A stretch of DNA of 22,830 nucleotides from a virus (lineage: Duplodnaviria; Heunggongvirae; Uroviricota; Caudoviricetes), in IMG/VR virus record IMGVR_UViG_2663763054_000006; one strand, 5' to 3'. Both the position numbers and the translations under genes were made by a program. Below, piece after piece: positions 1 through 22,830 of this stretch (within the stretch, counting starts at the first letter, position 1; every line of letters starts with the position of its first letter). The notes below the pieces were generated by a model that was not told where the DNA came from, ran no database searches, and saw only the letters and a list, made by a program, of their open reading frames with translations.

Positions 1-50
1 TTTTCTGCTCATTATTAGCTCCTTCTGATGCCATTCTATTTCAGGAAGGA

Positions 51-416
51 GTGTCCGTTAAACTCAGGCTACCTCAGTCTGCTGATTTGAGTCGCTACAG
101 TGGCACGGTGGTTAACCGTCCGACGTTTTTTGCTTTTGCAAAAGGCGCGGGTGTGATGGGGGAAGCGGGACCTGAAGCCATTCTGCCACTGCGTCGCGGT
201 GCTGATGGTAAGCTGGGGGGTGTGGCGGATACTGGTGGTTCAGGCATGGTGATGTTTGCCCCGCAGTACAACATTGAGATCAATAACGATGGCACGAACG
301 GGCAGATAGGTCCGGCTGCCCTGAAGGTGGTTTATGACCTCGGGAAAAAAGCGGCCGCGGACTTTATGCAACAGCAGGCCCGTGATGGTGGCCGGTTAAG
401 TGGAGCATACCGGTAA
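51..416 (+). CDS. H: C-terminal fragment of tail tape-measure protein (gpH-like), 121 aa from a GTG; stop overlaps the M start (TAATG)
   Basis: Sits immediately upstream of M with a 1-nt stop/start overlap, as in the lambda H-M arrangement. The upstream 50 nt are AT-rich with rare codons and, in copy 2, carry an in-frame TAG, so only the 3' end of H is present. Assignment is by position, not by recognised sequence. Confidence 0.5.
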   Translation: MSVKLRLPQSADLSRYSGTVVNRPTFFAFAKGAGVMGEAGPEAILPLRRGADGKLGGVADTGGSGMVMFAPQYNIEINNDGTNGQIGPAALKVVYDLGKKAAADFMQQQARDGGRLSGAYR

Positions 417-745
417 TGGAGACGTTTCACTGGAAAGTGCGCCCGGATATGAATGTGGTATCAGAGCCGAAAGTGGTGACAGTGAAGCTGGGCGATGGTT
501 ATGAACAGCGTCGTGCGGCGGGACTGAATAACCAGTTGTCGACTTACAGCGTGAAGATACGTGTTCGTAAAGGTGAACACCCATTTTTAAAAGCCTTTCT
601 GGAACGGCACGGTGGCGTCCGCGCATTTCAGTGGACGCCACCTTATGACTGGAAGCCGATCAGGGTGGTTTGTCGTAAATGGTCGGCAAGCGTGGGGGCG
701 TTGTGGGTAACCATAACGGCAGATTTTGAACAGGTCGTGGCATAG
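416..745 (+). CDS. M: Minor tail protein M (109 aa)
   Basis: 109-aa ORF (MxTFxWKV... GDGYxQR... WTPPY... FEQVV) in the lambda M position and of lambda M length; AGGAGG lies 4 nt upstream of the next gene. Confidence 0.85.
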   Translation: METFHWKVRPDMNVVSEPKVVTVKLGDGYEQRRAAGLNNQLSTYSVKIRVRKGEHPFLKAFLERHGGVRAFQWTPPYDWKPIRVVCRKWSASVGALWVTITADFEQVVA

Positions 746-754
746 GAGGCTCTG

Positions 755-1453
755 ATGCAGGATATTCCACAGGAAACACATCATGAGACGACACGCCTCA
801 CTCAGTCAGCCCAGGTGGTGCTCTGGGAAATCGATCTGACAGAGGTCGGTGGAGAACGTTATTTTTTCTGTAATGAGCAGAACGAAAAAGGTGAGCCGGT
901 TACCTGGCAGGGGCGGCAGTATCAGGCATACCCCATTCAGGGGACGGGATTTGAACTGAACGGCAAGGGCAGTGCTGCCCGTCCGACACTGACGGTTTCT
1001 AACCTGCACGGAATGGTCACCGGGATGGCGGAAGACCTGCAGAGTCTGGTCGGCGGAACGGTGGTCAGGCGTAAGGTTTACGCCCGTTTTCTGGATGCGG
1101 TGAACTTCGTCAACGGAAACAGCGACGCCGATCCGGAACAGGAGGTGATCAGCCGCTGGCGCATCGAGCAGTGCAGCGAACTGAGCGCGGTCAGTGCCTC
1201 TTTTGTGCTGGCCACACCAACGGAGACGGATGGCGCGGTTTTCCCGGGGCGTATCATGCTGGCGAATACCTGTATGTGGACTTACCGTTCTGATGAGTGT
1301 GGTTACACGGGCAGGGCAGTGGCTGACGAGTTCGACAAACCAACGACGGATATCCGGAAGGACAAATGCAGCAAGTGTATGCGCGGGTGTGAGTTGCGCA
1401 ACAATACCGGTAATTTCGGCGGTTTCCTTTCCATCAATAAACTTTCTCAGTAA
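755..1453 (+). CDS. L: Minor tail protein L (232 aa) with C-terminal Cys cluster
   Basis: 232 aa, the length of lambda gpL. AGGAGG is at 745-750, 4 nt before the ATG. C-terminal cysteines (CMWTYRSDECGYTG ... CSKCMRGC) are consistent with the reported Fe-S-binding gpL family. Gene order M-L-K-I-J. Confidence 0.85.
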   Translation: MQDIPQETHHETTRLTQSAQVVLWEIDLTEVGGERYFFCNEQNEKGEPVTWQGRQYQAYPIQGTGFELNGKGSAARPTLTVSNLHGMVTGMAEDLQSLVGGTVVRRKVYARFLDAVNFVNGNSDADPEQEVISRWRIEQCSELSAVSASFVLATPTETDGAVFPGRIMLANTCMWTYRSDECGYTGRAVADEFDKPTTDIRKDKCSKCMRGCELRNNTGNFGGFLSINKLSQ

Positions 1454-1457
1454 ATCC

Positions 1458-2201
1458 ATGACACAGACAGAATCAGCGATTCTGGCGCACGCCCGGCGAT
1501 GTGCTCCAGCGGAGTCGTGCGGCTTCGTGGTAAGAACGCCGGAGGGGGAAAGATATTTCCCCTGCGTGAATATCTCCGGTGAGCCGGAGGCGTATTTCCG
1601 TATGTCGCCGGAAGACTGGCTGCAGGCAGAGATGCAGGGTGAGATTGTGGCACTGGTCCACAGCCACCCCGGTGGTCTGCCCTGGCTGAGTGAGGCCGAC
1701 CGGCGGCTGCAGGTGCAGAGTGATTTGCCGTGGTGGCTGGTCTGCCGGGGGGCGATTCACAAGTTCCGCTGTGTGCCGCATCTCACCGGGCGGCGCTTTG
1801 AGCACGGGGTGACGGACTGTTACACGCTGTTCCGGGATGCTTATCATCTGGCAGGGATTGAGATGCCGGATTTTCATCGCGGGGATGACTGGTGGCGTAA
1901 CGGTCAGAATCTCTATCTTGACAATATGGAGGTGACGGGTTTTTACCGTGTCGCACTGACAGAGGCACAGCCGGGCGATGTGCTGCTGTGCTGTTTTGGT
2001 TCATCGGTGCCGAATCATGCCGCCATTTACTGCGGTGACGGCGGGCTGCTGCACCATATTCCTGAACAACTGAGCAAACGAGAGAGGTACACCGACAAAT
2101 GGCAGCGACGCACACACTCCCTCTGGCGTCACCGGGCATGGCGCGCATCTGCCTTTACGGGGATTTACAACGATTTGGTCGCCGCATCGACCTTCGTGTG
2201 A
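1458..2201 (+). CDS. K: Tail assembly protein K, MPN/JAMM plus NlpC/P60 domains (247 aa if started at 1458; 199 aa if started at the internal ATG 1602)
   Basis: JAMM motif HSHPGGLPWLSEAD (HxHx7Sx2D); NlpC/P60-like Cys (DCYTLF) and His (HAAIY). The ATG at 1458 is 4 nt after the L stop; the internal ATG at 1602 is preceded by GGAGG. The 3' end overlaps I by 103 nt. Confidence 0.8.
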   Translation: MTQTESAILAHARRCAPAESCGFVVRTPEGERYFPCVNISGEPEAYFRMSPEDWLQAEMQGEIVALVHSHPGGLPWLSEADRRLQVQSDLPWWLVCRGAIHKFRCVPHLTGRRFEHGVTDCYTLFRDAYHLAGIEMPDFHRGDDWWRNGQNLYLDNMEVTGFYRVALTEAQPGDVLLCCFGSSVPNHAAIYCGDGGLLHHIPEQLSKRERYTDKWQRRTHSLWRHRAWRASAFTGIYNDLVAASTFV

Positions 2202-2740
2202 AAACGGGGGCTGAAGCCATCCGGGCACTGGCCACACAGCTCCCGGCGTTTCGTCAGAAACTGAGTGACGGCTGGTATCAGGTGCGCATTGCCGGGCGTG
2301 ATGCAGGTGAAACCGAATTGTCTGCCCGTCTTAATGAGCCGCTGGCAAATGGTGCAGTGATCCACATAGTACCGCGTCTGGTGGGAGCTAAAAGTGGCGG
2401 TGTGTTTCAGGCGGTGCTGGGGGCGGCTGTTATGGCGGTTGCTATATGGATGCCGGGGGTAGGAATTATGGCGAGTAATCTGCTGTTTTCTCTCGGTGCC
2501 AGTATGACGCTTGGCGGTGTTGCACAGATGCTGGCACCGAAAGCCAGAACTCCCCGTACACAGACAACGGATAACGGTAAGCAGAACACGTATTTCTCGT
2601 CACTGGATAACATGGTTGCCCAGGGCAATGTTCTGCCCGTTCTGTACGGTGAAATGCGCGTGGGGTCACGTGTGGTTTCTCAGGAGATCAGCACGGCAGA
2701 CGAAGGGGATGGTGGTCAGGTTGTGGTGATTGGTCGCTGA
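2099..2740 (+). CDS. I: Tail assembly protein I (213-aa variant)
   Basis: Starts MAATHTLPLASPGMARICLYGDLQRFGRRIDLRVKTGAEAIRALATQLP; has a hydrophobic Gly/Ala-rich segment and the conserved C-terminus ...EISTADEGDGGQVVVIGR. GAGAGG SD 11 nt upstream; overlaps the K 3' end in another frame. Confidence 0.85.
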   Translation: MAATHTLPLASPGMARICLYGDLQRFGRRIDLRVKTGAEAIRALATQLPAFRQKLSDGWYQVRIAGRDAGETELSARLNEPLANGAVIHIVPRLVGAKSGGVFQAVLGAAVMAVAIWMPGVGIMASNLLFSLGASMTLGGVAQMLAPKARTPRTQTTDNGKQNTYFSSLDNMVAQGNVLPVLYGEMRVGSRVVSQEISTADEGDGGQVVVIGR

Positions 2741-2757
2741 TGCAAAATGTTTTATGT

Positions 2758-2779
2758 GAAACCGCCTGCGGGCGGTTTT
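2758..2779 (+). terminator. Conserved I-J intergenic hairpin (AAACCGCC-TGCG-GGCGGTTT) followed by a T-rich tract
   Basis: 8-bp stem with a UNCG-type loop, directly followed by TTTTGTCGTTT. Recurs at 6431-6451, 8966-8987 (with wobble-compatible change) and 10415-10435. Confidence 0.35.
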
Positions 2780-2800
2780 GTCGTTTATGGAGCGTGAGGA

Positions 2801-3622
2801 ATGGGTAAAGGCAGCAGTAAGGGGCATACCCCGCGCGAAGCGAAGGACAACCTGAAATCCACGCAGTTGCTGAGTGTGATTGATGCCATCAGCGAAGGGC
2901 CGGTTGACGGTCCGGTGGATGGATTAAAAAGCGTGCTGCTGAACGGTACGCCGGTCCTGGACAGCGAGGGGAAGACAAACTTTTCCGGTGTTACGGTGGT
3001 GTTCCGTGCAGGTGAGCAGGAGCAGACACCGCCGGAGGGTTTTGAATCCTCCGGCTCCGAGACGGTGCTGGGTACGGAAGTGAAATATGACACGCCGATC
3101 ACCCGGACCATCACGTCGGCAAACATCGACCGTCTGCGCCTGACCTTCGGTGTGCAGGCACTGGTGGAAACCACCTCAAAGGGTGACCGGAATCCGTCGG
3201 AAGTCCGCCTGCTGGTTCAGATACAGCGTAACGGTGGCTGGGTGACGGAAAAAGACATCACCATTAAGGGCAAAACCACTTCGCAGTATCTGGCCTCGGT
3301 GGTGGTGGGTAACCTGCCGCCGCGCCCGTTTAATATCCGGATGCGCAGGATGACACCGGACAGCACCACAGACCAGCTGCAGAACAAAACGCTCTGGTCG
3401 TCGTACACCGAAATCATCGATGTGAAACAGTGCTACCCGAACACGGCGCTGGTCGGCGTGCAGGTGGATTCAGAGCAGTTCGGTAACCAGCAGGTGAGTC
3501 GCAATTATCATCTTCGCGGGCGCATTCTGCAGGTGCCGTCGAACTATAACCCGCAGACGCGGCAATACAGCGGTATCTGGGACGGAACGCTTAAGCCAGC
3601 ATACAGCAACAACATGGCCTGG
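2801..3622 (+). CDS. J: Host-specificity / central tail fibre protein J, N-terminal fragment (aa 1-274), cut off at the N-marked junction
   Basis: MGKGSSKGHTPREAKDNLKSTQLLSVIDAISEGPVDG... continues colinearly in the other copies ([12 protein letters not shown]...), but here is followed by N at 3623 and unrelated sequence. Confidence 0.8.
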
Positions 3623-3672
3623 NGAACCGTTCTGACAGCTTCGGCTTTGAACTCTTTAGAGTAACGTTGGGT
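3623..3672. other. Breakpoint: N at 3623 plus about 49 nt of unassigned sequence linking truncated J to a second copy of the module
   Basis: Sequence after the N does not continue J; from 3673 it is identical to window positions 1 onward. Confidence 0.7.
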
Positions 3673-3722
3673 TTTTCTGCTCATTATTAGCTCCTTCTGA
3701 TGCCATTCTATTTCAGGAAGGA

Positions 3723-4088
3723 GTGTCCGTTAAACTCAGGCTACCTCAGTCTGCTGATTTGAGTCGCTACAGTGGCACGGTGGTTAACCGTCCGACGTTT
3801 TTTGCTTTTGCAAAAGGCGCGGGTGTGATGGGGGAAGCGGGACCTGAAGCCATTCTGCCACTGCGTCGCGGTGCTGATGGTAAGCTGGGGGGTGTGGCGG
3901 ATACTGGTGGTTCAGGCATGGTGATGTTTGCCCCGCAGTACAACATTGAGATCAATAACGATGGCACGAACGGGCAGATAGGTCCGGCTGCCCTGAAGGT
4001 GGTTTATGACCTCGGGAAAAAAGCGGCCGCGGACTTTATGCAACAGCAGGCCCGTGATGGTGGCCGGTTAAGTGGAGCATACCGGTAA
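3723..4088 (+). CDS. H: gpH-like C-terminal fragment, copy 2
   Basis: Identical to 51-416; in-frame TAG at 3657-3659 upstream. Confidence 0.5.
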   Translation: MSVKLRLPQSADLSRYSGTVVNRPTFFAFAKGAGVMGEAGPEAILPLRRGADGKLGGVADTGGSGMVMFAPQYNIEINNDGTNGQIGPAALKVVYDLGKKAAADFMQQQARDGGRLSGAYR

Positions 4089-4417
4089 TGGAGACGTTTC
4101 ACTGGAAAGTGCGCCCGGATATGAATGTGGTATCAGAGCCGAAAGTGGTGACAGTGAAGCTGGGCGATGGTTATGAACAGCGTCGTGCGGCGGGACTGAA
4201 TAACCAGTTGTCGACTTACAGCGTGAAGATACGTGTTCGTAAAGGTGAACACCCATTTTTAAAAGCCTTTCTGGAACGGCACGGTGGCGTCCGCGCATTT
4301 CAGTGGACGCCACCTTATGACTGGAAGCCGATCAGGGTGGTTTGTCGTAAATGGTCGGCAAGCGTGGGGGCGTTGTGGGTAACCATAACGGCAGATTTTG
4401 AACAGGTCGTGGCATAG
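4088..4417 (+). CDS. M: Minor tail protein M, copy 2
   Basis: Identical protein to 416-745. Confidence 0.85.
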   Translation: METFHWKVRPDMNVVSEPKVVTVKLGDGYEQRRAAGLNNQLSTYSVKIRVRKGEHPFLKAFLERHGGVRAFQWTPPYDWKPIRVVCRKWSASVGALWVTITADFEQVVA

Positions 4418-4426
4418 GAGGCTCTG

Positions 4427-5125
4427 ATGCAGGATATTCCACAGGAAACACATCATGAGACGACACGCCTCACTCAGTCAGCCCAGGTGGTGCTCTGGGA
4501 AATCGATCTGACAGAGGTCGGTGGTGAACGTTATTTTTTCTGTAATGAGCAGAACGAAAAAGGTGAGCCGGTTACCTGGCAGGGGCGGCAGTATCAGGCA
4601 TACCCCATTCAGGGGACGGGATTTGAACTGAACGGCAAGGGCAGTGCTGCCCGTCCGACACTGACGGTTTCTAACCTGCACGGAATGGTCACCGGGATGG
4701 CGGAAGACCTGCAGAGTCTGGTCGGCGGAACGGTGGTCAGGCGTAAGGTTTACGCCCGTTTTCTGGATGCGGTGAACTTCGTCAACGGAAACAGCGACGC
4801 CGATCCGGAACAGGAGGTGATCAGCCGCTGGCGCATCGAGCAGTGCAGCGAACTGAGCGCGGTCAGTGCCTCTTTTGTGCTGGCCACACCAACGGAGACG
4901 GATGGCGCGGTTTTCCCGGGGCGTATCATGCTGGCGAATACCTGTATGTGGACTTACCGTTCTGATGAGTGTGGTTACACGGGCAGGGCAGTGGCTGACG
5001 AGTTCGACAAACCAACGACGGATATCCGGAAGGACAAATGCAGCAAGTGTATGCGCGGGTGTGAGTTGCGCAACAATACCGGTAATTTCGGCGGTTTCCT
5101 TTCCATCAATAAACTTTCTCAGTAA
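4427..5125 (+). CDS. L: Minor tail protein L, copy 2
   Basis: Identical protein to 755-1453. Confidence 0.85.
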   Translation: MQDIPQETHHETTRLTQSAQVVLWEIDLTEVGGERYFFCNEQNEKGEPVTWQGRQYQAYPIQGTGFELNGKGSAARPTLTVSNLHGMVTGMAEDLQSLVGGTVVRRKVYARFLDAVNFVNGNSDADPEQEVISRWRIEQCSELSAVSASFVLATPTETDGAVFPGRIMLANTCMWTYRSDECGYTGRAVADEFDKPTTDIRKDKCSKCMRGCELRNNTGNFGGFLSINKLSQ

Positions 5126-5129
5126 ATCC

Positions 5130-5873
5130 ATGACACAGACAGAATCAGCGATTCTGGCGCACGCCCGGCGATGTGCGCCAGCGGAGTCGTGTGGCTTCGT
5201 GGTAAGAACGCCGGAGGGAGACAGGTATCTTCCCAGCGAGAATATCTCCGGTGAGCCGGAGGAACGGTTCCGGATGGCTCCGGAGGACTGGCTGCGGGCA
5301 CAAATGCAGGGTGAGATTGTGGCGCTGGTCCACAGTCATCCCGGTGGTCTGCCCTGGCTGAGTGAGGCTGACCGGCGGCTGCAGGTGCAGAGTGATTTGC
5401 CGTGGTGGCTGGTCTGCCGGGGGGCGATTCACAAGTTCCGCTGTGTGCCGCATCTCACCGGGCGGCGCTTTGAGCACGGGGTGACGGACTGTTACACGCT
5501 GTTCCGGGATGCTTACCATCTGGCGGGGATTGAGATGCCGGATTTTCATCGTGAGGATGACTGGTGGCGTCACGGTCAGAATCTCTATCTGGATAATCTG
5601 GAGGCCACAGGGCTGTATCAGGTGCCGTTGTCAGCGGCGCAGCCGGGCGATGTGCTGCTGTGCTGTTTTGGTTCATCGGTGCCGAATCATGCCGCCATTT
5701 ACTGCGGTGACGGCGGGCTGCTGCACCATATTCCTGAACAACTGAGCAAACGAGAGAGGTACACCGACAAATGGCAGCGACGCACACACTCCCTCTGGCG
5801 TCACCGGGCATGGCGCGCATCTGCCTTTACGGGGATTTACAACGATTTGGTCGCCGCATCGACCTTCGTGTGA
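5130..5873 (+). CDS. K: Tail assembly protein K, copy 2 (distinct allele)
   Basis: Same JAMM and NlpC/P60 motifs; clustered amino-acid differences from copy 1 in two patches. Internal ATG at 5274 is preceded by GGAGG. Confidence 0.8.
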   Translation: MTQTESAILAHARRCAPAESCGFVVRTPEGDRYLPSENISGEPEERFRMAPEDWLRAQMQGEIVALVHSHPGGLPWLSEADRRLQVQSDLPWWLVCRGAIHKFRCVPHLTGRRFEHGVTDCYTLFRDAYHLAGIEMPDFHREDDWWRHGQNLYLDNLEATGLYQVPLSAAQPGDVLLCCFGSSVPNHAAIYCGDGGLLHHIPEQLSKRERYTDKWQRRTHSLWRHRAWRASAFTGIYNDLVAASTFV

Positions 5874-6412
5874 AAACGGGGGCTGAAGCCATCCGGGCAC
5901 TGGCCACACAGCTCCCGGCGTTTCGTCAGAAACTGAGTGACGGCTGGTATCAGGTGCGCATTGCCGGGCGTGATGCAGGTGAAACCGAATTGTCTGCCCG
6001 TCTTAATGAGCCGCTGGCAAATGGTGCAGTGATCCACATAGTACCGCGTCTGGTGGGAGCTAAAAGTGGCGGTGTGTTTCAGGCGGTGCTGGGGGCGGCT
6101 GTTATGGCGGTTGCTATATGGATGCCGGGGGTAGGAATTATGGCGAGTAATCTGCTGTTTTCTCTCGGTGCCAGTATGACGCTTGGCGGTGTTGCACAGA
6201 TGCTGGCACCGAAAGCCAGAACTCCCCGCACACAGACAACGGATAACGGTAAGCAGAACACCTATTTCTCCTCACTGGATAACATGGTTGCCCAGGGCAA
6301 TGTTCTGCCCGTTCTGTACGGTGAAATGCGCGTGGGGTCACGTGTGGTTTCTCAGGAGATCAGCACGGCAGACGAAGGGGACGGTGGTCAGGTTGTGGTG
6401 ATTGGTCGCTGA
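5771..6412 (+). CDS. I: Tail assembly protein I, copy 2 (213 aa)
   Basis: Identical protein to 2099-2740. Confidence 0.85.
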   Translation: MAATHTLPLASPGMARICLYGDLQRFGRRIDLRVKTGAEAIRALATQLPAFRQKLSDGWYQVRIAGRDAGETELSARLNEPLANGAVIHIVPRLVGAKSGGVFQAVLGAAVMAVAIWMPGVGIMASNLLFSLGASMTLGGVAQMLAPKARTPRTQTTDNGKQNTYFSSLDNMVAQGNVLPVLYGEMRVGSRVVSQEISTADEGDGGQVVVIGR

Positions 6413-6472
6413 TGCAAAATGTTTTATGTGAAACCGCCTGCGGGCGGTTTTGTCGTTTATGGAGCGTGAGGA

Positions 6473-7918
6473 ATGGGTAAAGGCAGCAGTAAGGGGCATA
6501 CCCCGCGCGAAGCGAAGGACAACCTGAAATCCACGCAGTTGCTGAGTGTGATTGATGCCATCAGCGAAGGGCCGGTTGACGGTCCGGTGGATGGATTAAA
6601 AAGCGTGCTGCTGAACGGTACGCCGGTCCTGGACAGCGAGGGGAAGACAAACTTTTCCGGTGTTACGGTGGTGTTCCGTGCAGGTGAGCAGGAGCAGACA
6701 CCGCCGGAGGGTTTTGAATCCTCCGGCTCCGAGACGGTGCTGGGTACGGAAGTGAAATATGACACGCCGATCACCCGGACCATCACGTCGGCAAACATCG
6801 ACCGTCTGCGCCTGACCTTCGGTGTGCAGGCACTGGTGGAAACCACCTCAAAGGGTGACCGGAATCCGTCGGAAGTCCGCCTGCTGGTTCAGATACAGCG
6901 TAACGGTGGCTGGGTGACGGAAAAAGACATCACCATTAAGGGCAAAACCACTTCGCAGTATCTGGCCTCGGTGGTGGTGGGTAACCTGCCGCCGCGCCCG
7001 TTTAATATCCGGATGCGCAGGATGACACCGGACAGCACCACAGACCAGCTGCAGAACAAAACGCTCTGGTCGTCGTACACCGAAATCATCGATGTGAAAC
7101 AGTGCTACCCGAACACGGCGCTGGTCGGCGTGCAGGTGGATTCAGAGCAGTTCGGTAACCAGCAGGTGAGTCGCAATTATCATCTTCGCGGGCGCATTCT
7201 GCAGGTGCCGTCGAACTATAACCCGCAGACGCGGCAATACAGCGGTATCTGGGACGGAACGCTTAAGCCAGCATACAGCAACAACATGGCCTGGTGTCTG
7301 TGGGACATGCTCACTCATCCGCGCTACGGCATGGGGAAACGTCTTGGTGCGGCAGATGTGGACAAATGGGCGCTGTATGTCATCGGCCAGTACTGCGACC
7401 AGTCAGTGACGGACGGATTTGGCGGCACGGAGCCGCGCATCACCTGTAACTCTTACCTGACCACACAGCGTAAGGCGTGGGATGTTCTCAGTGATTTCTG
7501 CTCGGCGATGCGCTGTATGCCGGTATGGAACGGACAGATGCTGACGTTCGTGCAGGACCGACCGTCGGATAAGGTGTGGACCTATAACCGCAGTAATGTG
7601 GTGATGCCGGACGATGGCGCGCCGTTCCGCTACAGCTTCAGCGCCCTGAAGGACCGCCATAATGCCGTTGAGGTGAACTGGATTGACCCAGATAACGGCT
7701 GGGAGACGGCGACAGAGCTTGTGGAGGATACGCAGGCCATTGCCCGTTACGGTCGTAATGTCACGAAGATGGATGCCTTTGGCTGTACCAGCCGGGGGCA
7801 GGCACACCGAGCCGGGCTGTGGCTGATTAAAACGGAACTGCTGGAAACGCAGACCGTGGACTTCAGCGTGGGCGCAGAAGGGCTTCGCCATGTACCGGGT
7901 GATGTCATTGAAATCTGC
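6473..7918 (+). CDS. J: J fragment (aa 1-482), ends at the N-marked junction at 7921
   Basis: Colinear J N-terminal region through ...[21 protein letters not shown], then N and mid-K sequence. Confidence 0.8.
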
Positions 7919-7922
7919 GANC

Positions 7923-8378
7923 CGGGGGGCGATTCACAAGTTCCGCTGTGTGCCACATCTTACCGGGCGGCGCTTTGAGCACGGGGTGACGGACTGTTAC
8001 ACGCTGTTCCGGGATGCTTACCATCTGGCGGGGATTGAGATGCCGGATTTTCATCGTGAGGATGACTGGTGGCGTCACGGTCAGAATCTCTATCTGGATA
8101 ATCTGGAGGCCACAGGGCTGTATCAGGTGCCGTTGTCAGCGGCGCAGCCGGGCGATGTGCTGCTGTGCTGTTTTGGTTCATCGGTGCCGAATCATGCCGC
8201 CATTTACTGTGGTGACGGCGAGCTGCTGCACCATATTCCTGAACAACTGAGCAAACGAGAGAGGTATACCGACAAATGGCAGCGACGCACACACTCCCTC
8301 TGGCGTCACCGGGCATGGCACGCATCTGCCTTTACGGGGATTTGCAACGATTTGGCCGCCGCATCGACCTTCGTGTGA
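7923..8378 (+). CDS. K: K C-terminal fragment (NlpC/P60 part, from about aa 97), joined to J at the N
   Basis: RGAIHKFRCVPHLTGRRFEHGVTDCYTLF... matches K internal sequence. No start codon context; begins at the breakpoint. Confidence 0.75.
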   Translation, partial: RGAIHKFRCVPHLTGRRFEHGVTDCYTLFRDAYHLAGIEMPDFHREDDWWRHGQNLYLDNLEATGLYQVPLSAAQPGDVLLCCFGSSVPNHAAIYCGDGELLHHIPEQLSKRERYTDKWQRRTHSLWRHRAWHASAFTGICNDLAAASTFV

Positions 8379-8947: not shown

Positions 8948-9007
8948 TGCAAAATGTTTTATGTGAAATCGCCTCCGGGCGGTTTTATCGTTTATGGAGC
9001 ATGACGA

Positions 9008-10396: not shown

Positions 10397-10456
10397 TGCA
10401 AAATGTTTTATGTGAAACCGCCTGCGGGCGGTTTTGTCGTTTATGGAGCGTGAGGA

Positions 10457-12007: not shown

Positions 12008-12008
12008 N

Positions 12009-15000
12009 ACCTTCGGTGTGCAGGCACTGGTGGAAACCACCTCAAAGGGTGACCGGAATCCGTCGGAAGTCCGCCTGCTGGTTCAGATACAGCGTAACGG
12101 TGGCTGGGTGACGGAAAAAGACATCACCATTAAGGGCAAAACCACTTCGCAGTATCTGGCCTCGGTGGTGGTGGGTAACCTGCCGCCGCGCCCGTTTAAT
12201 ATCCGGATGCGCAGGATGACACCGGACAGCACCACAGACCAGCTGCAGAACAAAACGCTCTGGTCGTCGTACACCGAAATCATCGATGTGAAACAGTGCT
12301 ACCCGAACACGGCGCTGGTCGGCGTGCAGGTGGATTCAGAGCAGTTCGGTAACCAGCAGGTGAGTCGCAATTATCATCTTCGCGGGCGCATTCTGCAGGT
12401 GCCGTCGAACTATAACCCGCAGACGCGGCAATACAGCGGTATCTGGGACGGAACGCTTAAGCCAGCATACAGCAACAACATGGCCTGGTGTCTGTGGGAC
12501 ATGCTCACTCATCCGCGCTACGGCATGGGGAAACGTCTTGGTGCGGCAGATGTGGACAAATGGGCGCTGTATGTCATCGGCCAGTACTGCGACCAGTCAG
12601 TGACGGACGGATTTGGCGGCACGGAGCCGCGCATCACCTGTAACTCTTACCTGACCACACAGCGTAAGGCGTGGGATGTTCTCAGTGATTTCTGCTCGGC
12701 GATGCGCTGTATGCCGGTATGGAACGGGCAGACGCTGACGTTCGTGCAGGACCGACAGTCGGATAAGGTGTGGGCCTATAACCGCAGTAATGTGGTGATG
12801 CCGGATGATGGCGCGCCGTTCCGCTACAGTTTCAGCGCCCTGAAAGACCGCCATAATGCCGTTGAGGTGAACTGGATTGACCCAGATAACGGCTGGGAGA
12901 CGGCGACAGAGCTTGTGGAGGATACGCAGGCCATTGTCCGTTACGGTCGTAACGTCACGAAGATGGATGCCTTTGGCTGTACCAGCCGGGGGCAGGCACA
13001 CCGCGCCGGGCTGTGGCTGATTAAAACGGAACTGCTGGAAACGCAGACCGTGGACTTCAGCGTGGGCGCAGAAGGGCTTCGCCATGTACCGGGTGATGTC
13101 ATTGAAATCTGCGATGATGATTATGCCGGTATCAGCACCGGTGGTCGCGTACTGGCGGTGAACAGCCAGACCCGGACGCTGACGCTCGACCGTGAAATCA
13201 CGCTGCCATCCTCCGGCACCACGCTGATAAGCCTGGTTGACGGGCAGGGGAATCCGGTCAGCGTGGAGGTCCAGTCCGTCACCGACGGCGTGAAGGTAAA
13301 AGTGAGCCGTGTTCCTGACGGTGTTGCTGAATACAGCGTGTGGGGGCTGAAGCTGCCGACGCTGCACCAGCGATTGTTCCGCTGCGTGAGTATCCGTGAG
13401 AACGACGACGGCACGTATGCCATCACCGCCGTGCAGCATGTGCCGGAAAAAGAAGCCATCGTGGATAACGGGGCGCACTTTGACGGCGACCAGAGCGGCA
13501 CGGTGAATGGTGTCACGCCGCCAGCGGTGCAGCACCTGACTGCCGAAGTCACCGCAGACAGCGGGGAATATCAGGTGCTGGCGCGCTGGGACACGCCGAA
13601 GGTGGTGAAGGGCGTGAGCTTCCTGCTCCGTCTGACCGTAACAGCGGATGACGGCAGTGAGCGGCTGGTCAGCACGGCCCGGACGACGGAAACCACTTAC
13701 CGCTTCACACAACTGGCGCTGGGGAACTACAGGCTGACAGTCCGGGCAGTAAATGCGTGGGGGCAGCAGGGCGATCCGGCGTCGGTATCGTTCCGGATTG
13801 CCGCACCGGCAGCGCTGTCGCGGATTGAGCTGACGCCGGGCTATTTTCAGATAACCGCCACGCCGCATCTTGCGGTTTATGATCCGACGGTACAGTTTGA
13901 GTTCTGGTTCTCGGAAAAGCGGATTGCGGATATCAGGCAGGTTGAAACCACAGCACGCTATCTTGGCACGGCGCTGTACTGGATAGCCGCCAGTATCAAT
14001 ATCAAACCGGGCCATGATTATTACTTTTATATCCGCAGTGTGAACACCGTTGGCAAATCGGCATTCGTGGAGGCTGTTGGTCAGCCGAGTGATGATGCAT
14101 CCGGTTATCTGGATTTTTTCAAAGGCGAGATAGGGAAAACCCATCTGGCTCAGGAGCTGTGGACGCAGATTGATAACGGTCAGCTTGCGCCTGACCTGGC
14201 TGAAATCAGGACGTCCATTACGGATGTCAGCAATGAAATCACGCAGACCGTGGATTTCAGCGTGGGTGCTGAAGGGCTTCGTCATGTACCGGGCGATGTC
14301 ATTGAAATCTGCGATGATGACTATGCCGGTATCCGCACCGGCGGGCGCGTGCTGGCGGTGAACAGCCAGACCCGGACGCTGACGCTCGACCGTGAAATCA
14401 CGCTGCCGTCCTCCGGTACCACGCTGATAAGCCTGGTTGACGGAAGTGGCAATCCGGTCAGCGTGGAGGTCCAGTCCGTCACCGACGGCGTGAAGGTAAA
14501 AGTGAGCCGTGTTCCTGACGGTGTTGCTGAATACAGCGTGTGGGGGCTGAAGCTGCCGACGCTGCACCAGCGATTGTTCCGCTGCGTGAGTATCCGTGAG
14601 AACGACGACGGCACGTATGCCATCACCGCCGTGCAGCATGTGCCGGAAAAAGAGGCCATCGTGGATAACGGGGCACACTTTGACGGTGACCGGCGCGGCA
14701 CGGTGAATGGTGTCACGCCGCCAGCGGTGCAGCACCTGACTGCCGAAGTCACCGCAGACAGCGGGGAATATCAGGTGCTGGCGCGATGGGACACGCCGAA
14801 GGTGGTGAAGGGTGTGAGCTTCCTGCTCCGTCTGACCGTAACAGCGGATGACGGCAGTGAGCGGCTGGTCAGCACGGCCCGGACGACGGAAACCACTTAC
14901 CGCTTCACACAACTGGCGCTGGGGAACTACAGGCTGACAGTCCGGGCAGTAAATGCGTGGGGGCAGCAGGGCGATCCGGCGTCGGTATCGTTCCGGATTG

Positions 15001-18000
15001 CCGCACCGGCAGCGCTGTCGCGGATTGAGCTGACGCCGGGCTATTTTCAGATAACCGCCACGCCGCATCTTGCGGTTTATGATCCGACGGTACAGTTTGA
15101 GTTCTGGTTCTCGGAAAAGCGGATTGCGGATATCAGGCAGGTTGAAACCACAGCACGCTATCTTGGCACGGCGCTGTACTGGATAGCCGCCAGTATCAAT
15201 ATCAAACCGGGCCATGATTATTACTTTTATATCCGCAGTGTGAACACCGTTGGCAAATCGGCATTCGTGGAGGCTGTTGGTCAGCCGAGTGATGATGCAT
15301 CCGGTTATCTGGATTTTTTCAAAGGCGAGATAGGGAAAACCCATCTGGCTCAGGAGCTGTGGACGCAGATTGATAACGGTCAGCTTGCGCCTGACCTGGC
15401 TGAAATCAGGACGTCCATTACGGATGTCAGCAATGAAATCACGCAGACCGTCAATAAGAAACTGGAAGACCAGAGTGCGGCAATTCAGCAGATACAGAAG
15501 GTTCAGGTTGATACAAATAATAACCTGAACAGCATGTGGGCTGTGAAGCTGCAGCAGATGCAGGACGGACGCCTTTATATCGCGGGTATTGGTGCCGGTA
15601 TTGAGAACACCCCTGACGGCATGCAGAGTCAGGTGCTGCTGGCGGCGGACAGGATTGCGATGGTTAATCCTGCGAATGGCAACACAAAACCGATGTTTGT
15701 TGGTCAGGGCGATCAGATATTCATGAACGACGTGTTCCTGAAACGCCTGACGGCCCCCACCATTACCAGCGGTGGAAATCCATCGGCATTTTCCCTGACT
15801 CCGGACGGAAAGCTGACCGCTAAAAATGCGGATATCAGTGGCAGTGTGAATGCGAACGCCGGGACGCTCAACAATGTCACGGTAAATGAAAACTGTACGA
15901 TTAAGGGCATGCTGGAGGCGACNTGGGAGACGGCGACAGAGCTTGTGGAGGATACGCAGGCCATTGCCCGTTACGGTCGTAATGTCACGAAGATGGATGC
16001 CTTTGGCTGTACCAGCCGGGGGCAGGCACACCGAGCCGGGCTGTGGCTGATTAAAACGGAACTGCTGGAAACGCAGACCGTGGACTTCAGCGTGGGCGCA
16101 GAAGGGCTTCGCCATGTACCGGGTGATGTCATTGAAATCTGCGATGATGATTATGCCGGTATCAGCACCGGTGGTCGCGTACTGGCGGTGAACAGCCAGA
16201 CCCGGACGCTGACGCTCGACCGTGAAATCACGCTGCCGTCCTCCGGTACCACGCTGATAAGCCTGGTTGACGGAAGTGGCAATCCGGTCAGCGTGGAGGT
16301 CCAGTCCGTCACCGACGGCGTGAAGGTGAAAGTGAGCCGGGTTCCTGACGGCGTTGCAGAATACAGCGTGTGGGGGCTGAAGCTGCCGACGCTGCGCCAG
16401 CGTCTGTTCCGCTGCGTGAGTATCCGTGAGAACGACGACGGCACGTATGCCATCACCGCCGTGCAGCATGTGCCGGAAAAAGAGGCCATCGTGGATAACG
16501 GGGCACACTTTGACGGTGACCGGCGCGGCACGGTGAATGGTGTCACGCCGCCAGCGGTGCAGCATCTGACCGCCGAAGTCACCGCAGACAGCGGGGAATA
16601 TCAGGTGCTGGCGCGATGGGACACGCCGAAGGTGGTGAAGGGTGTGAGCTTCCTGCTTCGCCTGACCGTGGCAGCGGACGACGGCAGTGAGCGGCTGGTC
16701 AGCACAGCCAGGACGACGGAAACCACATACCGCTTCAGGCAGCTGGCGCTGGGGAATTACAGTCTGACAGTCCGGGCGGTAAATGCCCGGGGGCAGCAGG
16801 GCGATCCGGCGTCGGTATCGTTCCGGATTGCCGCACCGGCAGCGCTGTCGCGGATTGAGCTGACGCCGGGCTATTTTCAGATAACCGCCACGCCGCATCT
16901 TGCGGTTTATGATCCGACGGTACAGTTTGAGTTCTGGTTCTCGGAAAAGCGGATTGCGGATATCAGGCAGGTTGAAACCACAGCACGCTATCTTGGCACG
17001 GCGCTGTACTGGATAGCCGCCAGTATCAATATCAGGCCGGGCCATGATTATTATTTTTACGTTCGCAGTGTGAACACCGTTGGCAAATCGGCATTTGTGG
17101 AGGCCATCGGTCGGGCGAGCGATGATGCAGAAGGTTATCTGAATTTTTATAAAGGGTTGATCAATAAAACGCATCTCGGCAAGGAGTTGTGGACGCAGAT
17201 TGATAACGGTCAGCTTGCGCCTGACCTGGCTGAAATCAGGACGTCCATTACGGATGTCAGCAATGAAATCACGCAGACCGTCAATAAGAAACTGGAAGAC
17301 CAGAGTGCGGCAATTCAGCAGATACAGAAGGTTCAGGTTGATACAAATAATAACCTGAACAGCATGTGGGCTGTGAAGCTGCAGCAGATGCAGGACGGAC
17401 GCCTTTATATCGCGGGTATTGGTGCCGGTATTGAGAACACCCCTGACGGCATGCAGAGTCAGGTGCTGCTGGCGGCGGACAGGATTGCGATGGTTAATCC
17501 TGCGAATGGCAACACAAAACCGATGTTTGTTGGTCAGGGCGATCAGATATTCATGAACGACGTGTTCCTGAAACGCCTGACGGCCCCCACCATTACCAGC
17601 GGTGGAAATCCATCGGCATTTTCCCTGACTCCGGACGGAAAGCTGACCGCTAAAAATGCGGATATCAGTGGCAGTGTGAATGCGAACGCCGGGACGCTCA
17701 ACAATGTCACGGTAAATGAAAACTGTACGATTAAGGGCATGCTGGAGGCGACTCAGGTCAGAGGTGACTTCGTTAAAGCTGTATCCAAATCATTTCCGAA
17801 ACAGGCTGGTACGTGGGGTAACACGGAAACACCAAACGGGACGGTTACAGTCACCATAAGCGATGATCATAACTTTGACCGCCAGATTATTATTCCGCCC
17901 ATTATTTTTAACGGTATAGCGTATGACGATCCGGGGAGCGGAAATAACCCAGGAGGCACGCGATACACGGGTTATGGTTTTGAAGTTCGCAAAAACGGCG

Positions 18001-18194
18001 TATTAATCGCATCCAGAGAAACTAAAGGTGCCATTCCCGGTAGTTACAGTGCAGTTATTGATATGCCTAGTGGTGGTGGTAGCGTCACTCTGGAGTTTAA
18101 GATTTTCCAGAAAGGCAATCAGGGGGCAGGCAATATCACCGACTGTACGGTGATTGTGACCAAAAAAGCGGCTTCCGGCATCAGTATTCGTTGA
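12009..18194 (+). CDS. J: Rearranged J: aa 115 to about 1010, then aa 463 to about 1120, then aa 410 to the C-terminus (2070-aa ORF; native J inferred at about 1165 aa)
   Basis: Blocks such as [26 protein letters not shown] and the FN3-like segment [33 protein letters not shown] occur three times in this ORF. Internal junctions at 14241-14251 (microhomology) and N at 15923. Ends ...[15 protein letters not shown]. Confidence 0.7.
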
Positions 18195-18216
18195 AATATT
18201 TATAACCCCAATAAAT

Positions 18217-18243
18217 GGCGTCAGGAATGACGCCTTTTTTATT
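18217..18243 (+). terminator. Rho-independent terminator after J (GGCGTCA-GGAA-TGACGCC plus TTTTTTATT)
   Basis: Perfect 7-bp GC-rich stem with a 4-nt loop followed by a T-run, 23 nt after the J stop. Confidence 0.7.
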
Positions 18244-18264
18244 GCAGAAAAGCGAGAGGTAATT

Positions 18265-18558
18265 ATGCGTAAAGTTTGTGCAGCCATTTTGTCCGCAGCC
18301 ATTTGCCTGGCCGTATCCGGTGCGCCTGCATGGGCGTCTGAACATCAGTCCACGCTGAGCGCGGGGTATCTTCATGCCCGGACCAACGTTCCCGGCAGTG
18401 ATGATCTGAACGGGATTAACGTGAAATACCGTTATGAGTTTACGGATACGCTGGGGCTGGTGACGTCATTCAGCTATGCAGGAGACAAGAATCGCCAGCT
18501 GACCCGTTACAGCGATACCCGCTGGCATGAAGATTCCGTGCGTAACCGCTGGTTCAGC
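18265..18558 (+). CDS. lom: Lom-family outer membrane protein (Ail/Lom/OmpX-like), N-terminal 98 aa, fused at the N to J
   Basis: Signal peptide MRKVCAAILSAAICLAVSGAPAWA followed by SE; family motifs GINVKYRYEFTD and SFSYAGD. GAGAGG SD upstream. Position directly after J, as in lambda. Confidence 0.8.
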
Positions 18559-18561
18559 GNG

Positions 18562-20571
18562 GCGGTGAACAGCCAGACCCGGACGCTGACGCTCGACCGT
18601 GAAATCACGCTGCCATCCTCCGGCACCACGCTGATAAGCCTGGTTGACGGGCAGGGGAATCCGGTCAGCGTGGAGGTCCAGTCCGTCACCGACGGCGTGA
18701 AGGTAAAAGTGAGCCGTGTTCCTGACGGTGTTGCTGAATACAGCGTGTGGGGGCTGAAGCTGCCGACGCTGCACCAGCGATTGTTCCGCTGCGTGAGTAT
18801 CCGTGAGAACGACGACGGCACGTATGCCATCACCGCCGTGCAGCATGTGCCGGAAAAAGAAGCCATCGTGGATAACGGGGCGCACTTTGACGGCGACCAG
18901 AGCGGCACGGTGAATGGTGTCACGCCGCCAGCGGTGCAGCACCTGACTGCCGAAGTCACCGCAGACAGCGGGGAATATCAGGTGCTGGCGCGCTGGGACA
19001 CGCCGAAGGTGGTGAAGGGCGTGAGCTTCCTGCTCCGTCTGACCGTAACAGCGGATGACGGCAGTGAGCGGCTGGTCAGCACGGCCCGGACGACGGAAAC
19101 CACTTACCGCTTCACACAACTGGCGCTGGGGAACTACAGGCTGACAGTCCGGGCAGTAAATGCGTGGGGGCAGCAGGGCGATCCGGCGTCGGTATCGTTC
19201 CGGATTGCCGCACCGGCAGCGCTGTCGCGGATTGAGCTGACGCCGGGCTATTTTCAGATAACCGCCACGCCGCATCTTGCGGTTTATGATCCGACGGTAC
19301 AGTTTGAGTTCTGGTTCTCGGAAAAGCGGATTGCGGATATCAGGCAGGTTGAAACCACAGCACGCTATCTTGGCACGGCGCTGTACTGGATAGCCGCCAG
19401 TATCAATATCAAACCGGGCCATGATTATTACTTTTATATCCGCAGTGTGAACACCGTTGGCAAATCGGCATTCGTGGAGGCTGTTGGTCAGCCGAGTGAT
19501 GATGCATCCGGTTATCTGGATTTTTTCAAAGGCGAGATAGGGAAAACCCATCTGGCTCAGGAGCTGTGGACGCAGATTGATAACGGTCAGCTTGCGCCGG
19601 ACCTGACTGAAATCAGGACGTCCATTACGAATGTCAGCAATGAAATCACGCAAACCGTCAATAAAAAACTGGAAAATCAGAGTGCTGCAATCCAGCAGAT
19701 ACAGAAAGTTCAGGTTGATACAAATAATAACCTGAACAGCATGTGGGCTGTGAAGCTGCAGCAGATGCAGGACGGACGCCTTTATATCGCGGGTATTGGT
19801 GCCGGTATTGAGAACACCCCTGACGGCATGCAGAGTCAGGTGCTGCTGGCGGCGGACAGGATTGCGATGGTTAATCCTGCGAATGGCAACACAAAACCGA
19901 TGTTTGTTGGTCAGGGCGATCAGATATTCATGAACGACGTGTTCCTGAAACGCCTGACGGCCCCCACCATTACCAGCGGTGGAAATCCATCGGCATTTTC
20001 CCTGACTCCGGACGGAAAGCTGACCGCTAAAAATGCGGATATCAGTGGCAGTGTGAATGCGAACGCCGGGACGCTCAACAATGTCACGGTAAATGAAAAC
20101 TGTACGATTAAGGGCATGCTGGAGGCGACTCAGGTCAGAGGTGACTTCGTTAAAGCTGTATCCAAATCATTTCCGAAACAGGCTGGTACGTGGGGTAACA
20201 CGGAAACACCAAACGGGACGGTTACAGTCACCATAAGCGATGATCATAACTTTGACCGCCAGATTATTATTCCGCCCATTATTTTTAACGGTATAGCGTA
20301 TGACGATCCGGGGAGCGGAAATAACCCAGGAGGCACGCGATACACGGGTTATGGTTTTGAAGTTCGCAAAAACGGCGTATTAATCGCATCCAGAGAAACT
20401 AAAGGTGCCATTCCCGGTAGTTACAGTGCAGTTATTGATATGCCTAGTGGTGGTGGTAGCGTCACTCTGGAGTTTAAGATTTTCCAGAAAGGCAATCAGG
20501 GGGCAGGCAATATCACCGACTGTACGGTGATTGTGACCAAAAAAGCGGCTTCCGGCATCAGTATTCGTTGA
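18562..20571 (+). CDS. J: J fragment aa 497 to end (about 669 aa), in frame with the preceding lom fragment through the N
   Basis: [30 protein letters not shown]... through ...[10 protein letters not shown] stop. Confidence 0.75.
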
Positions 20572-20935
20572 AATATTTATAACCCCAATAAATGGCGTCA
20601 GGAATGACGCCTTTTTTATTGCAGAAAAGCGAGAGGTAATTATGCGTAAAGTTTGTGCAGCCATTTTGTCCGCAGCCATTTGCCTGGCCGTATCCGGTGC
20701 GCCTGCATGGGCGTCTGAACATCAGTCCACGCTGAGCGCGGGGTATCTTCATGCCCGGACCAACGTTCCCGGCAGTGATGATCTGAACGGGATTAACGTG
20801 AAATACCGTTATGAGTTTACGGATACGCTGGGGCTGGTGACGTCATTCAGCTATGCAGGAGACAAGAATCGCCAGCTGACCCGTTACAGCGATACCCGCT
20901 GGCATGAAGATTCCGTGCGTAACCGCTGGTTCAGC
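20572..20935 (+). repeat. Direct repeat of 18195-18558 (terminator plus lom 5' part), offset 2377
   Basis: Identical intergenic region, hairpin and lom N-terminal translation. Confidence 0.85.
20594..20620 (+). terminator. Rho-independent terminator after J (second copy)
   Basis: Same hairpin and T-run as 18217-18243. Confidence 0.7.
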
Positions 20936-21079
20936 GTGATGGCGGGGCCGTCTGTGCGCGTGAATGAATGGTTCAGCGCGTATGCGATGGCGGGTGTGGC
21001 TTACAGCCGTGTGTCGACTTTTTCCGGGGATTATATCCGCGTAACTGACAATAAGGGGAAAACGCACGATGTGCTGACC
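20642..21079 (+). CDS. lom: Lom-family outer membrane protein, N-terminal 146 aa, interrupted by the N run
   Basis: Continues beyond the first lom fragment (...VMAGPSVRVNEWFSAYAMAGVAYSRVSTFSGDYIRVTDNKGKTHDVLT), showing the lom body is in the data. Confidence 0.8.
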
Positions 21080-21090
21080 NNNNNNNNNNN
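21080..21090. other. Run of 11 N: gap or join between lom (aa 146) and the J C-terminal region
   Basis: Ambiguous bases flanked by unrelated genes. Confidence 0.9.
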
Positions 21091-22567
21091 CAGCACAGCC
21101 AGGACGACGGAAACCACATACCGCTTCAGGCAGCTGGCGCTGGGGAATTACAGTCTGACAGTCCGGGCGGTAAATGCCCGGGGGCAGCAGGGCGATCCGG
21201 CGTCGGTATCGTTCCGGATTGCGGCACCGGCAGCGCCTGTCACTATTGAACTGATACCGGGGTATTTTCAGATAACGGCGGTCCCGAAACTGGCTGTATA
21301 TGACCCGACGGTGCAGTTTGAGTTCTGGTTTTCGGAAAAGCGGATTGCGGATATCAGGCAGGTTGAAACCAGCGCCCGCTATCTTGGCACGGCGCTGTAC
21401 TGGATAGCCGCCAGTATCAATATCAGGCCGGGCCATGATTATTATTTTTACGTTCGCAGTGTGAACACCGTTGGCAAATCGGCATTTGTGGAGGCCATCG
21501 GTCGGGCGAGCGATGATGCAGAAGGTTATCTGAATTTTTATAAAGGGTTGATCAATAAAACGCATCTCGGCAAGGAGTTGTGGACGCAGATTGATAACGG
21601 TCAGCTTGCGCCGGACCTGACTGAAATCAGGACGTCCATTACGAATGTCAGCAATGAAATCACGCAAACCGTCAATAAAAAACTGGAAAATCAGAGTGCT
21701 GCAATCCAGCAGATACAGAAAGTTCAGGTTGATACAAATAATAACCTGAACAGCATGTGGGCTGTGAAGCTGCAACAGATGAAGGACGGACGCCTTTATA
21801 TTGCGGGTATCGGTGCCGGTATTGAGAATACGCCAGCAGGAATGCAGAGTCAGGTGCTGCTGGCGGCAGACAGGATTGCGATGATTAATCCTGCGAATGG
21901 CAACACAAAGCCGATGTTTGTTGGTCAGGGCGATCAGATATTCATGAACGACGTGTTCCTGAAATGCCTGACGGCTCCGACCATTACCAGCGGCGGTAAT
22001 CCTCCGGCATTTTCCCTGACACCTGGCGGACGGCTGACGGCGAAAAATGCCGATATCAGCGGTAACGTGAACGCGAACTCCGGGACGCTCAACAACGTCA
22101 CGATTAATAAGAACTGTCGGGTTCTGGGAAAATTGTCCGCGAACCAGATTGAAGGCGATCTCGTTAAAACAGTGGGCAAACCTTTCCCACGGGACTCCCG
22201 GGCACCGGAGAGGTGGCCATCAGGGACCATTACCGTCAGGGTTTATGACGATCAGCCGTTTGATCGGCAAATTGTTATTCCCGCGGTGGCGTTTCGCGGT
22301 GCTAAACATGAGCGGAAGAATAACAATATTTATTCGTCATGCCGCCTGATAGTGAAGAAAAACGGTGCTGAAATTTATAACCGAACGACCCTGGATAATA
22401 CGCTGATATATACGGGTGTTATTGATATGCCTGCCGGTCACGGTCACATGACGCTGGAGTTTTCTGTATCGGCATGGCTGGTAAATGGCTGGTATCCCAC
22501 AGCAAGTATCAGCGATTTGCTGGTTGTGGTGATGAAGAAAGCCACTGCAGGCATCACGATTAGCTGA
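21091..22567 (+). CDS. J: J C-terminal fragment carrying the alternative receptor-binding module (ends ...[16 protein letters not shown])
   Basis: Upstream part is highly similar to the other J alleles; the last 150 aa or so (from about [19 protein letters not shown]) is strongly divergent from the ...ASGISIR module. Confidence 0.75.
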
Positions 22568-22586
22568 ATTTTATAACCCAGATACG

Positions 22587-22613
22587 GGCACCAGAAATGG
22601 TGCCTTTTTTATT
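22587..22613 (+). terminator. Rho-independent terminator after J, variant stem (GGCACCA-GAAA-TGGTGCC plus TTTTTTATT)
   Basis: Stem differs from 18217-18234 at paired positions, with complementarity preserved. Confidence 0.7.
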
Positions 22614-22634
22614 GCAGAAAAGCGAGAGGTAATT

Positions 22635-22830
22635 ATGCGTAAAGTTTGTGCAGCCATTTTGTCCGCAGCCATTTGCCTGGCCGTATCCGGTGCGCCTGCA
22701 TGGGCGTCTGAACATCAGTCCACGCTGAGCGCGGGGTATCTTCATGCCCGGACCAACGTTCCCGGCAGTGATGATCTGAACGGGATTAACGTGAAATACC
22801 GTTATGAGTTTACGGATACGCTGGGGCTGG
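22635..22830 (+). CDS. lom: Lom-family outer membrane protein, third copy, 5' part (runs off the window end)
   Basis: Identical N-terminal translation to the other lom copies; GAGAGG SD at 22624-22629. Confidence 0.8.
   Translation, partial: MRKVCAAILSAAICLAVSGAPAWASEHQSTLSAGYLHARTNVPGSDDLNGINVKYRYEFTDTLGL

Follow-up and report, generated by a model that had tools for sequence, protein, structure and literature searches.

Is a stretch of viral DNA in which the same lambda-like tail-tip genes recur one after another a real phage locus, or was it made by sequence assembly? The window, by which we mean the whole 22,830-nucleotide (nt) stretch of IMG/VR record IMGVR_UViG_2663763054_000006 (Caudoviricetes), is identical in extent to one complete draft scaffold, CXFM01000166.1 of assembly GCA_001247155.1, and holds repeated pieces of the module H'-M-L-K-I-J-lom, in which H' is what is left of the tape-measure gene H. 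A preliminary description had taken it for the product of mis-scaffolding in a short-read assembly, or of a path traced through the collapsed repeat graph of several lambdoid prophages residing together, and had held a genuine tandem amplification to be less likely. Working with assembled sequences only (the window, closed-genome loci, sister drafts and sequence collections), we conclude that the window is almost certainly an artefact, produced when short reads from two lambda-like tail-tip regions were assembled, scaffolded and gap-filled, and corresponds to no real locus. That description is upheld by a scaffold consisting entirely of repeats and bearing Ns, by two parents in closed genomes, by the absence elsewhere of the junctions that lack N, and by discordant sister drafts. 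The underlying loci are two ordinary, previously sequenced lambdoid tail-tip modules of Shigella sonnei, which is to all appearances the sequenced isolate.

Self-BLAST aligned the window with itself many times in direct orientation, over 0.2-3.6 kb and at 88-100% identity, far above chance. Together with BLAST against the annotated tail region of phage cdtI, it resolved the window into nine blocks (B1 to B9), all on the plus strand and all placed on one shared 6.9-kb H'-M-L-K-I-J-lom interval, so that 22.8 kb of sequence amounts to a 3.3-fold coverage of the module. All eight joins between blocks jump backward along the module by 1.2-3.7 kb, with a different pair of endpoints each time. There are 16 N among the 22,830 bases, as single N at positions 3623, 7921, 12008, 15923 and 18560 and a run of 11 N at 21080-21090. 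Every N site falls exactly on a join, as the preliminary description had said for six joins, and we add two N-less joins with overlaps of 10 and 11 nt. Wherever a block borders a join, its edge is perfectly duplicated over 64-1229 bp inside another block, in which the sequence runs on (the first 480 nt of B5 copy the end of B1, and the first 221 nt of B7 copy the end of B2). Block ends were thus extended over sequence that was also assembled elsewhere in the scaffold. The scaffold begins within IS600 and breaks off within lom, and it contains nothing except repeat material of the tail-tip module.

Two parental versions of the module were found in finished chromosomes. Look-up of the 121-amino-acid (aa) H' open reading frame (ORF) led to the first, P1, in four closed or multi-megabase chromosome records (L007, L009, L011 and L012), including CP000038.1, which is Shigella sonnei Ss046 (PMC6562246), with the locus at 1862591-1882956. 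The gene order of P1 is IS600, H', M, L, K, I, J, Lom, a tail-fibre fragment and an insertion sequence. Its J is called intact (1159 aa) in three of the four records; the gene calls of L009 split several genes, J included. The I protein of B3 led to the second, P2, which is part of a lambda-like prophage that is complete in two closed chromosomes, CP023645.1 (at 1260987-1281658) and CP022459.1 (L017 and L018), with the order E ... V-G-T-H-M-L-K-I-J(1165 aa)-tail fibre. P1 and P2 are each single, colinear and free of N in these six records. Sites that differ between them are less than 90 bp apart across ∼6.9 kb, with many identical stretches of 30-89 nt in between.

The nine blocks were aligned with P1 and P2, and 3,573 informative sites were painted by parent. 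Each has the allele of one parent or the other, with no site at which a block departs from both. B1 matches the Ss046 locus at 99.28% identity, with the P2 allele at each of the 26 mismatches; its P1 sequence is interrupted by patches of P2 at 853 and 1505-1697 (pattern 1/2/1/2/1). B2 (99.35% identity to the same locus) is P1 except for patches of P2 at 5516-5639, 6229-6271 and 6382, and deviates from P1 only at the equivalents of B1 positions 1844-1967 and 2557-2710. The departures of B1 and B2 from P1 are complementary, and their union is the exact list of B1/B2 differences. B3 is pure P2, with 2312 of 2312 nt identical to CP023645.1 (locus L017, 9647-11958) and the P2 allele at 248 of 248 informative sites. 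B4 is P1 to 10861 and P2 from 10936, B5 alternates between P1 and P2 with five switches, and B6 is mostly P2 with three P1 patches, the two blocks alternating five to six times. B7 runs P1, P2, P1 and then P2 from 17222; B8 (99.6% identity to L017) is P2 with one P1 patch at 19599-19707; B9 (98.97% identity to the Ss046 locus) is P1 to 22601 and P2 from 22673. Altogether there are 28 allele switches inside blocks.

Painting also settles how many versions of the module are present. Up to five copies of one region occur, with at most four distinct sequences per 300-bp bin. The description of at least three allelic versions needs correcting here, in that all of these sequences are recombinations of just two parental alleles. 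Alignment of the blocks with complete prophage genomes had been proposed as a check on whether the blocks derive from different prophages. Two closed-genome loci account for everything, with the refinement that the blocks are chimeric and not faithful copies of separate prophages. We had also considered four or more prophages, by threading blocks through their exact overlaps (B1+B5+B8, called 'hapA'; B2+B7; B4+B6). This was rejected, as painting shows these threads to be P1-to-P2 chimeras; exact block overlaps are therefore not evidence of true linkage. When aligned colinearly and in one piece, hapA reached only 95.7% to complete E. coli genomes, and the best value for B2 was 97.1%.

Could the joins be artefactual and the internal switches nevertheless real, having arisen by gene conversion between the prophages of the isolate? 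Co-resident lambdoid prophages are generally known to exchange segments, and homologous recombination likewise depends on a minimum of identical sequence, a few tens of nt long, so that a switch threshold of this size is not unique to software. We regard this as very unlikely. B1 and B2 share a unique IS600::H' end yet carry complementary P2 patches, where real conversion would allow one version only. Up to four P1/P2 combinations occupy one module position, although no more than two loci are needed, and B3 is pure P2 over 2.3 kb while the overlapping B4 is P1 and then P2.

The spacing of the switches is informative as to how they arose. Between neighbouring informative sites, identical stretches shorter than 30 nt contain one switch in 3,380 intervals, and stretches of at least 30 nt contain 27 switches in 184 intervals, all of them at ≥32 nt. 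The sole switch outside an identical stretch of at least 32 nt is a colinear P1-to-P2 change in B6, at 14814-14827, where the two parents share 14 nt (GTGAGCTTCCTGCT). It looks like a hidden third N-less merge, in which a gap was closed where it should be but with mismatched alleles on its two sides. An alignment-free comparison gave the same picture. For k up to 33, each N-free k-mer of the window is present in P1 or P2 with the exception of three clusters, namely the two N-less joins, whose k-mers are in neither parent, and 14814-14827. At k = 35, 41, 51 and 71 the clusters of novel k-mers number 6, 11, 19 and 26, respectively. In short, every non-colinear join has either N or a minimal-overlap merge, novel words up to k = 33 occur only at the N-less joins and the 14-nt switch, and finished genomes have separate, colinear copies.

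These scales resemble those of published gap-filling software. GapFiller extends gap edges base by base with 30-mers (29-nt overlap) and majority voting, and closes a gap at an overlap of at least 10 nt (Boetzer and Pirovano, 2012). A high-throughput pipeline running Velvet, then SSPACE and then GapFiller uses 16 scaffolding and 120 gap-filling iterations, and its authors state that greedy tools can make false joins (Page et al., 2016). The signatures in the window (a 30-mer scale and closures of 10-14 nt) fit GapFiller defaults and the Velvet-SSPACE-GapFiller pipeline; from these signatures and an accession series in the style of the European Nucleotide Archive (ENA) we infer that the record originated there.

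We searched for the window and its junctions elsewhere. With the whole window as query against 5,426 complete E. coli genomes and 50,697 phage records, the best places listed cover only ∼6.7 kb of a record, and no near-identical full-length source was found in either collection. The lack of a full-length E. coli match follows from the source being Shigella, which is not in that collection. Probes of 400 bp over the two N-less joins gave no colinear match in the 5,426 complete E. coli genomes. Exact 44-46-mers of both N-less junctions were absent from GTDB species representatives, JGI metagenomes and IMG/VR, a result that is uninformative on the source and consistent with unique artefacts. Nineteen E. 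coli genomes with 100% coverage of junction 1, and one with 81% coverage of junction 2, were examined as candidates and rejected; the two pieces lie there in the normal I-to-J order within J-deleted remnants. These are degraded lambdoid remnants with internal J deletions in E. coli K_EC180 (L003, NZ_CP062203.1 3100945-3107705), 18 similar genomes and NZ_CP148405.1 (L004); the K_EC180 remnant adjoins tRNA-Ser/hyaA and has a partial I as well. The E. coli genomes nearest to the window modules carry ipaH beside the prophage (e.g., at 11613-11721 of L006, E. coli FDAARGOS_944, NZ_CP065613.1). This hints at enteroinvasive E. coli (EIEC) or Shigella-like strains filed as E. coli, which would agree with the window having come from Shigella. 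Searching the literature for the assembly or its whole-genome shotgun (WGS) accession gave no match.

Two sister drafts have the same kind of sequence in other orders. CXBT01000039.1 and CXAW01000054.1, whose accessions neighbour that of the window's record in one series, chain P1- and P2-specific sequence in orders unlike that of the window, with N at the breaks (7795, 8762 and 17517-17520 in the former, L010; 9255-9275, 9899-9901 and 14832-14842 in the latter, L013). Order thus varies among drafts while closed genomes agree, as an artefact predicts, and the artefact looks systematic for this data set. The sister drafts also bear on a mixed or contaminated culture, in which the assembler would have interleaved the alleles of two strains. 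P1 and P2 were indeed recovered from different closed genomes, as such a mixture would have it. The two independent sister drafts nevertheless both hold P1- and P2-specific sequence, which speaks for the presence of P1 and P2 together in single isolates, and several lambdoid tail modules per genome are common in complete E. coli (median of 3 places per genome where any is present). A mixture therefore has hardly any probability in our estimate, and the window is an artefact under that reading too.

The upstream edge of the module provides a further marker. The preliminary description had listed a join from J to a point upstream of H'; the join exists, and the upstream sequence can now be named as an IS600 end. 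The terminal 74 nt of IS600 abut H' at 1-74 (minus strand), identical to nt 50-123 of B2, and the terminal 123 nt abut it again at 3624-3746 (minus strand). The latter (B2 1-123) match at 100% the ends annotated as 'IS3-like element IS600 family transposase' and include the start of orfA. Upstream of H' every frame is interrupted by stops, and the H reading frame is lost before position 3747. Judged by sequence, the tape-measure gene H is cut by IS600, which leaves the 121-aa H' ORF. The identical IS600::H' junction occurs twice within the window. It was found in S. sonnei Ss046 and other closed genomes and in none of the 5,426 complete E. coli genomes, and it could be a lineage marker of this defective prophage.

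We also asked whether recombination of two prophages, possibly mediated by IS600 or microhomology, could have made a real series of truncated modules. The microhomology of 10-11 nt at the N-less joins could serve illegitimate recombination as well, an IS600 lies at the module edge, and the ORF stays open across five of the eight joins, which is not significant (p ∼0.09, our own binomial estimate). Against this, the eight junctions are all different, no repeat unit is constant, and six joins are N. Where one region is present in as many as five copies, each copy is a different recombinant of P1 and P2 and none has a mutation of its own, and the switches have a sharp threshold at ∼32 nt. A single-copy IS600::H' junction appears twice with complementary P2 patches, both loci run colinearly in the closed genomes examined, and neither N-less junction is in complete E. 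coli genomes. The sister drafts differ in order, and no J or lom is intact. We therefore give a genuine array next to no probability. The same near-zero weight goes to a rearranged 'graveyard' of truncated modules left by repeated recombination of two prophages, with Ns masking short unresolved bases. The tandem amplification that had been rated less likely from the start is effectively excluded.

Assembly and gap filling would account for the window in the following way. The isolate would carry two lambdoid tail-tip modules, P1 as a remnant (an IS600-cut H followed by M-L-K-I-J-lom) and P2 within a complete lambda-like prophage. Short k-mers would fail to separate P1 from P2 across identical stretches, and assembly paths would flip between alleles. 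Read pairs would then link fragments of both copies by their module position, and the scaffolder would set them in series. Extension of the edges by k-mers would lengthen each fragment beyond its neighbour; a single N would be left where closure was not accepted, and neighbours would be fused where their extensions shared 10-14 nt by chance. Several points weigh against this account. The closed genomes that yielded P1 are not those that yielded P2, and the two are together only in this scaffold and the two sister drafts. A de Bruijn assembler with k of ∼31-33 would yield an identical switch threshold. The 11-N gap and the exact block order do not follow from a model of the software.

The joins that had been listed earlier (J to upstream of H', J to mid-K, J to I, J to J, and lom to J) are all borne out by block mapping, which is given here in the coordinates of L001. 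B1 (1-3622; L001 2884-6555) has, after the IS600 end, H' at 51-416, M at 416-745, L at 755-1453, K at 1458-2201, I at 2138-2740 and the first 822 nt of a truncated J at 2801-3622. The single N at 3623 (join N1) leads from J (∼6555) to IS600/H' (∼2837), ∼3.7 kb back. B2 (3624-7920; L001 2837-7181) repeats the IS600 end and has H' at 3723-4088, M at 4088-4417, L at 4427-5125, K at 5130-5873, I at 5870-6412 and the first 1448 nt of a truncated J at 6473-7920. Join N2, a single N at 7921, goes from J to mid-K, ∼2.5 kb back. B3 (7922-10233; L001 4672-6959) comprises the 3' part of K (to 8378), I at 8276-8947 and the 5' part of J at 9008-10233. An N-less join follows at 10224-10233, from J (6959) to the 3' end of I (5501), through the 10-nt overlap CGGATAACGG. 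B4 (10224-12007; L001 5501-7284) has the last 173 nt of I and the 5' part of J at 10457-12007. All these genes are on the plus strand.

From B5 onward the window is J and lom sequence, again on the plus strand. Join N3, a single N at 12008, goes from J to J, ∼1.2 kb back and out of frame. B5 (12009-14251; L001 6076-8318) is an internal J fragment. The second N-less join, at 14241-14251, leads from J (∼8318) to J (7108) through the 11-nt overlap ACGCAGACCGT, and B6 (14241-15922; L001 7108-8789) is an internal J fragment too. After join N4 (single N at 15923, J to J, ∼1.8 kb back), B7 (15924-18559; L001 6961-9595) has the 3' part of J (stop at 18194) and the first 295 nt of lom at 18265-18559. 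Join N5 (single N at 18560, lom to J, ∼2.4 kb back) precedes B8 (18561-21079; L001 7221-9738), which has the 3' part of J (stop at 20571) and the first 438 nt of lom at 20642-21079. Join N6, the 11 N at 21080-21090, goes from lom to J, ∼2.0 kb back. B9 (21091-22830; L001 7737-9496) has a 3' part of J with the other receptor-binding C-terminus (stop at 22567) and the first 196 nt of lom at 22635-22830.

Pfam confirmed M, L, K, I, the J domains and Lom (Phage_min_tail, Phage_tail_L, Prok-JAB with NLPC_P60, Lambda_tail_I, GpJ domains and Ail_Lom, respectively), and all ORFs of the window are tail-tip genes or their fragments. The individual blocks are pieces of a lambda-type tail-tip module, with the expected gene order, matching families and colinearity with phage cdtI and the closed-genome loci. 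No single complete copy is present, in that the window has no intact J (∼1160 aa) or lom (∼199 aa). J is always truncated or fused (287, 501, 462, 531 and 2054/2070 aa), and lom is present as three 5' fragments. The chimeric ORFs, all on the plus strand, are J'::'I at 9008-10396 (462 aa, spanning the N-less join 10224-10233), a J-J-J chimera at 12030-18194 (2,054 aa), and two lom'::'J ORFs at 18265-20571 (768 aa, across join N5) and 20642-22567 (641 aa, across join N6). The ORF at 9008-10396 is recorded solely in GCA_001247155.1, record CXFM01000166.1. Artificial fusion ORFs of this scaffold have been called as genes and are stored in a public protein collection like real proteins.

An antisense ORF of 1,525 aa (12597-17174, minus strand) spans the chained J fragments. 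Opposite each J copy there are shorter ones, of 99-395 aa, and one antisense frame of J seems nearly free of stops. As for programmed tail-fibre diversification (a shufflon, a diversity-generating retroelement (DGR) or invertible cassettes), no recombinase or reverse transcriptase was found among the called ORFs of the window; inverted repeats were not searched.

The window has no biological significance and is a case of data quality, in which a publicly deposited draft scaffold contains chimeric prophage sequence with 3.3-fold redundancy. Such records can mislead surveys of tail-fibre and receptor-binding diversity, prophage counts, scans for repeats or 'amplification', and training sets for sequence models. 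Two quick flags need no reads: a two-parent painting with zero private sites, and a number of novel k-mers that hardly departs from zero up to k of ∼33 and rises thereafter.

Compared with known systems, the window resembles a tandem amplification only in having the same genes head-to-tail on one strand. An amplification is expected to have a constant unit and a repeated junction, whereas the window has neither and has N at six of its eight joins; its copies differ by up to 12%, and every difference is a choice between P1 and P2 alleles, with no private sites. The likeness to false joins of GapFiller and SSPACE is closer and includes N at unresolved joins, closures of 10-14 nt, duplicated block edges and loss of phase only across at least 32 identical nt. 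The default overlap of GapFiller is 29 nt, compared with a smallest switch interval of 32 nt here, and attribution to this program is inferred. A prophage in a real genome has the module once, over 6.7-6.9 kb and normally with J and lom intact, whereas the window has it 3.3 times, with no intact copy of either gene and with eight back-steps. Measured against the lambda-type module H-M-L-K-I-J-lom of phage cdtI (NC_009514.1), the Ss046 remnant and the CP023645.1 prophage, every block is a colinear piece, and the sequence is 100% attributable to two such modules.

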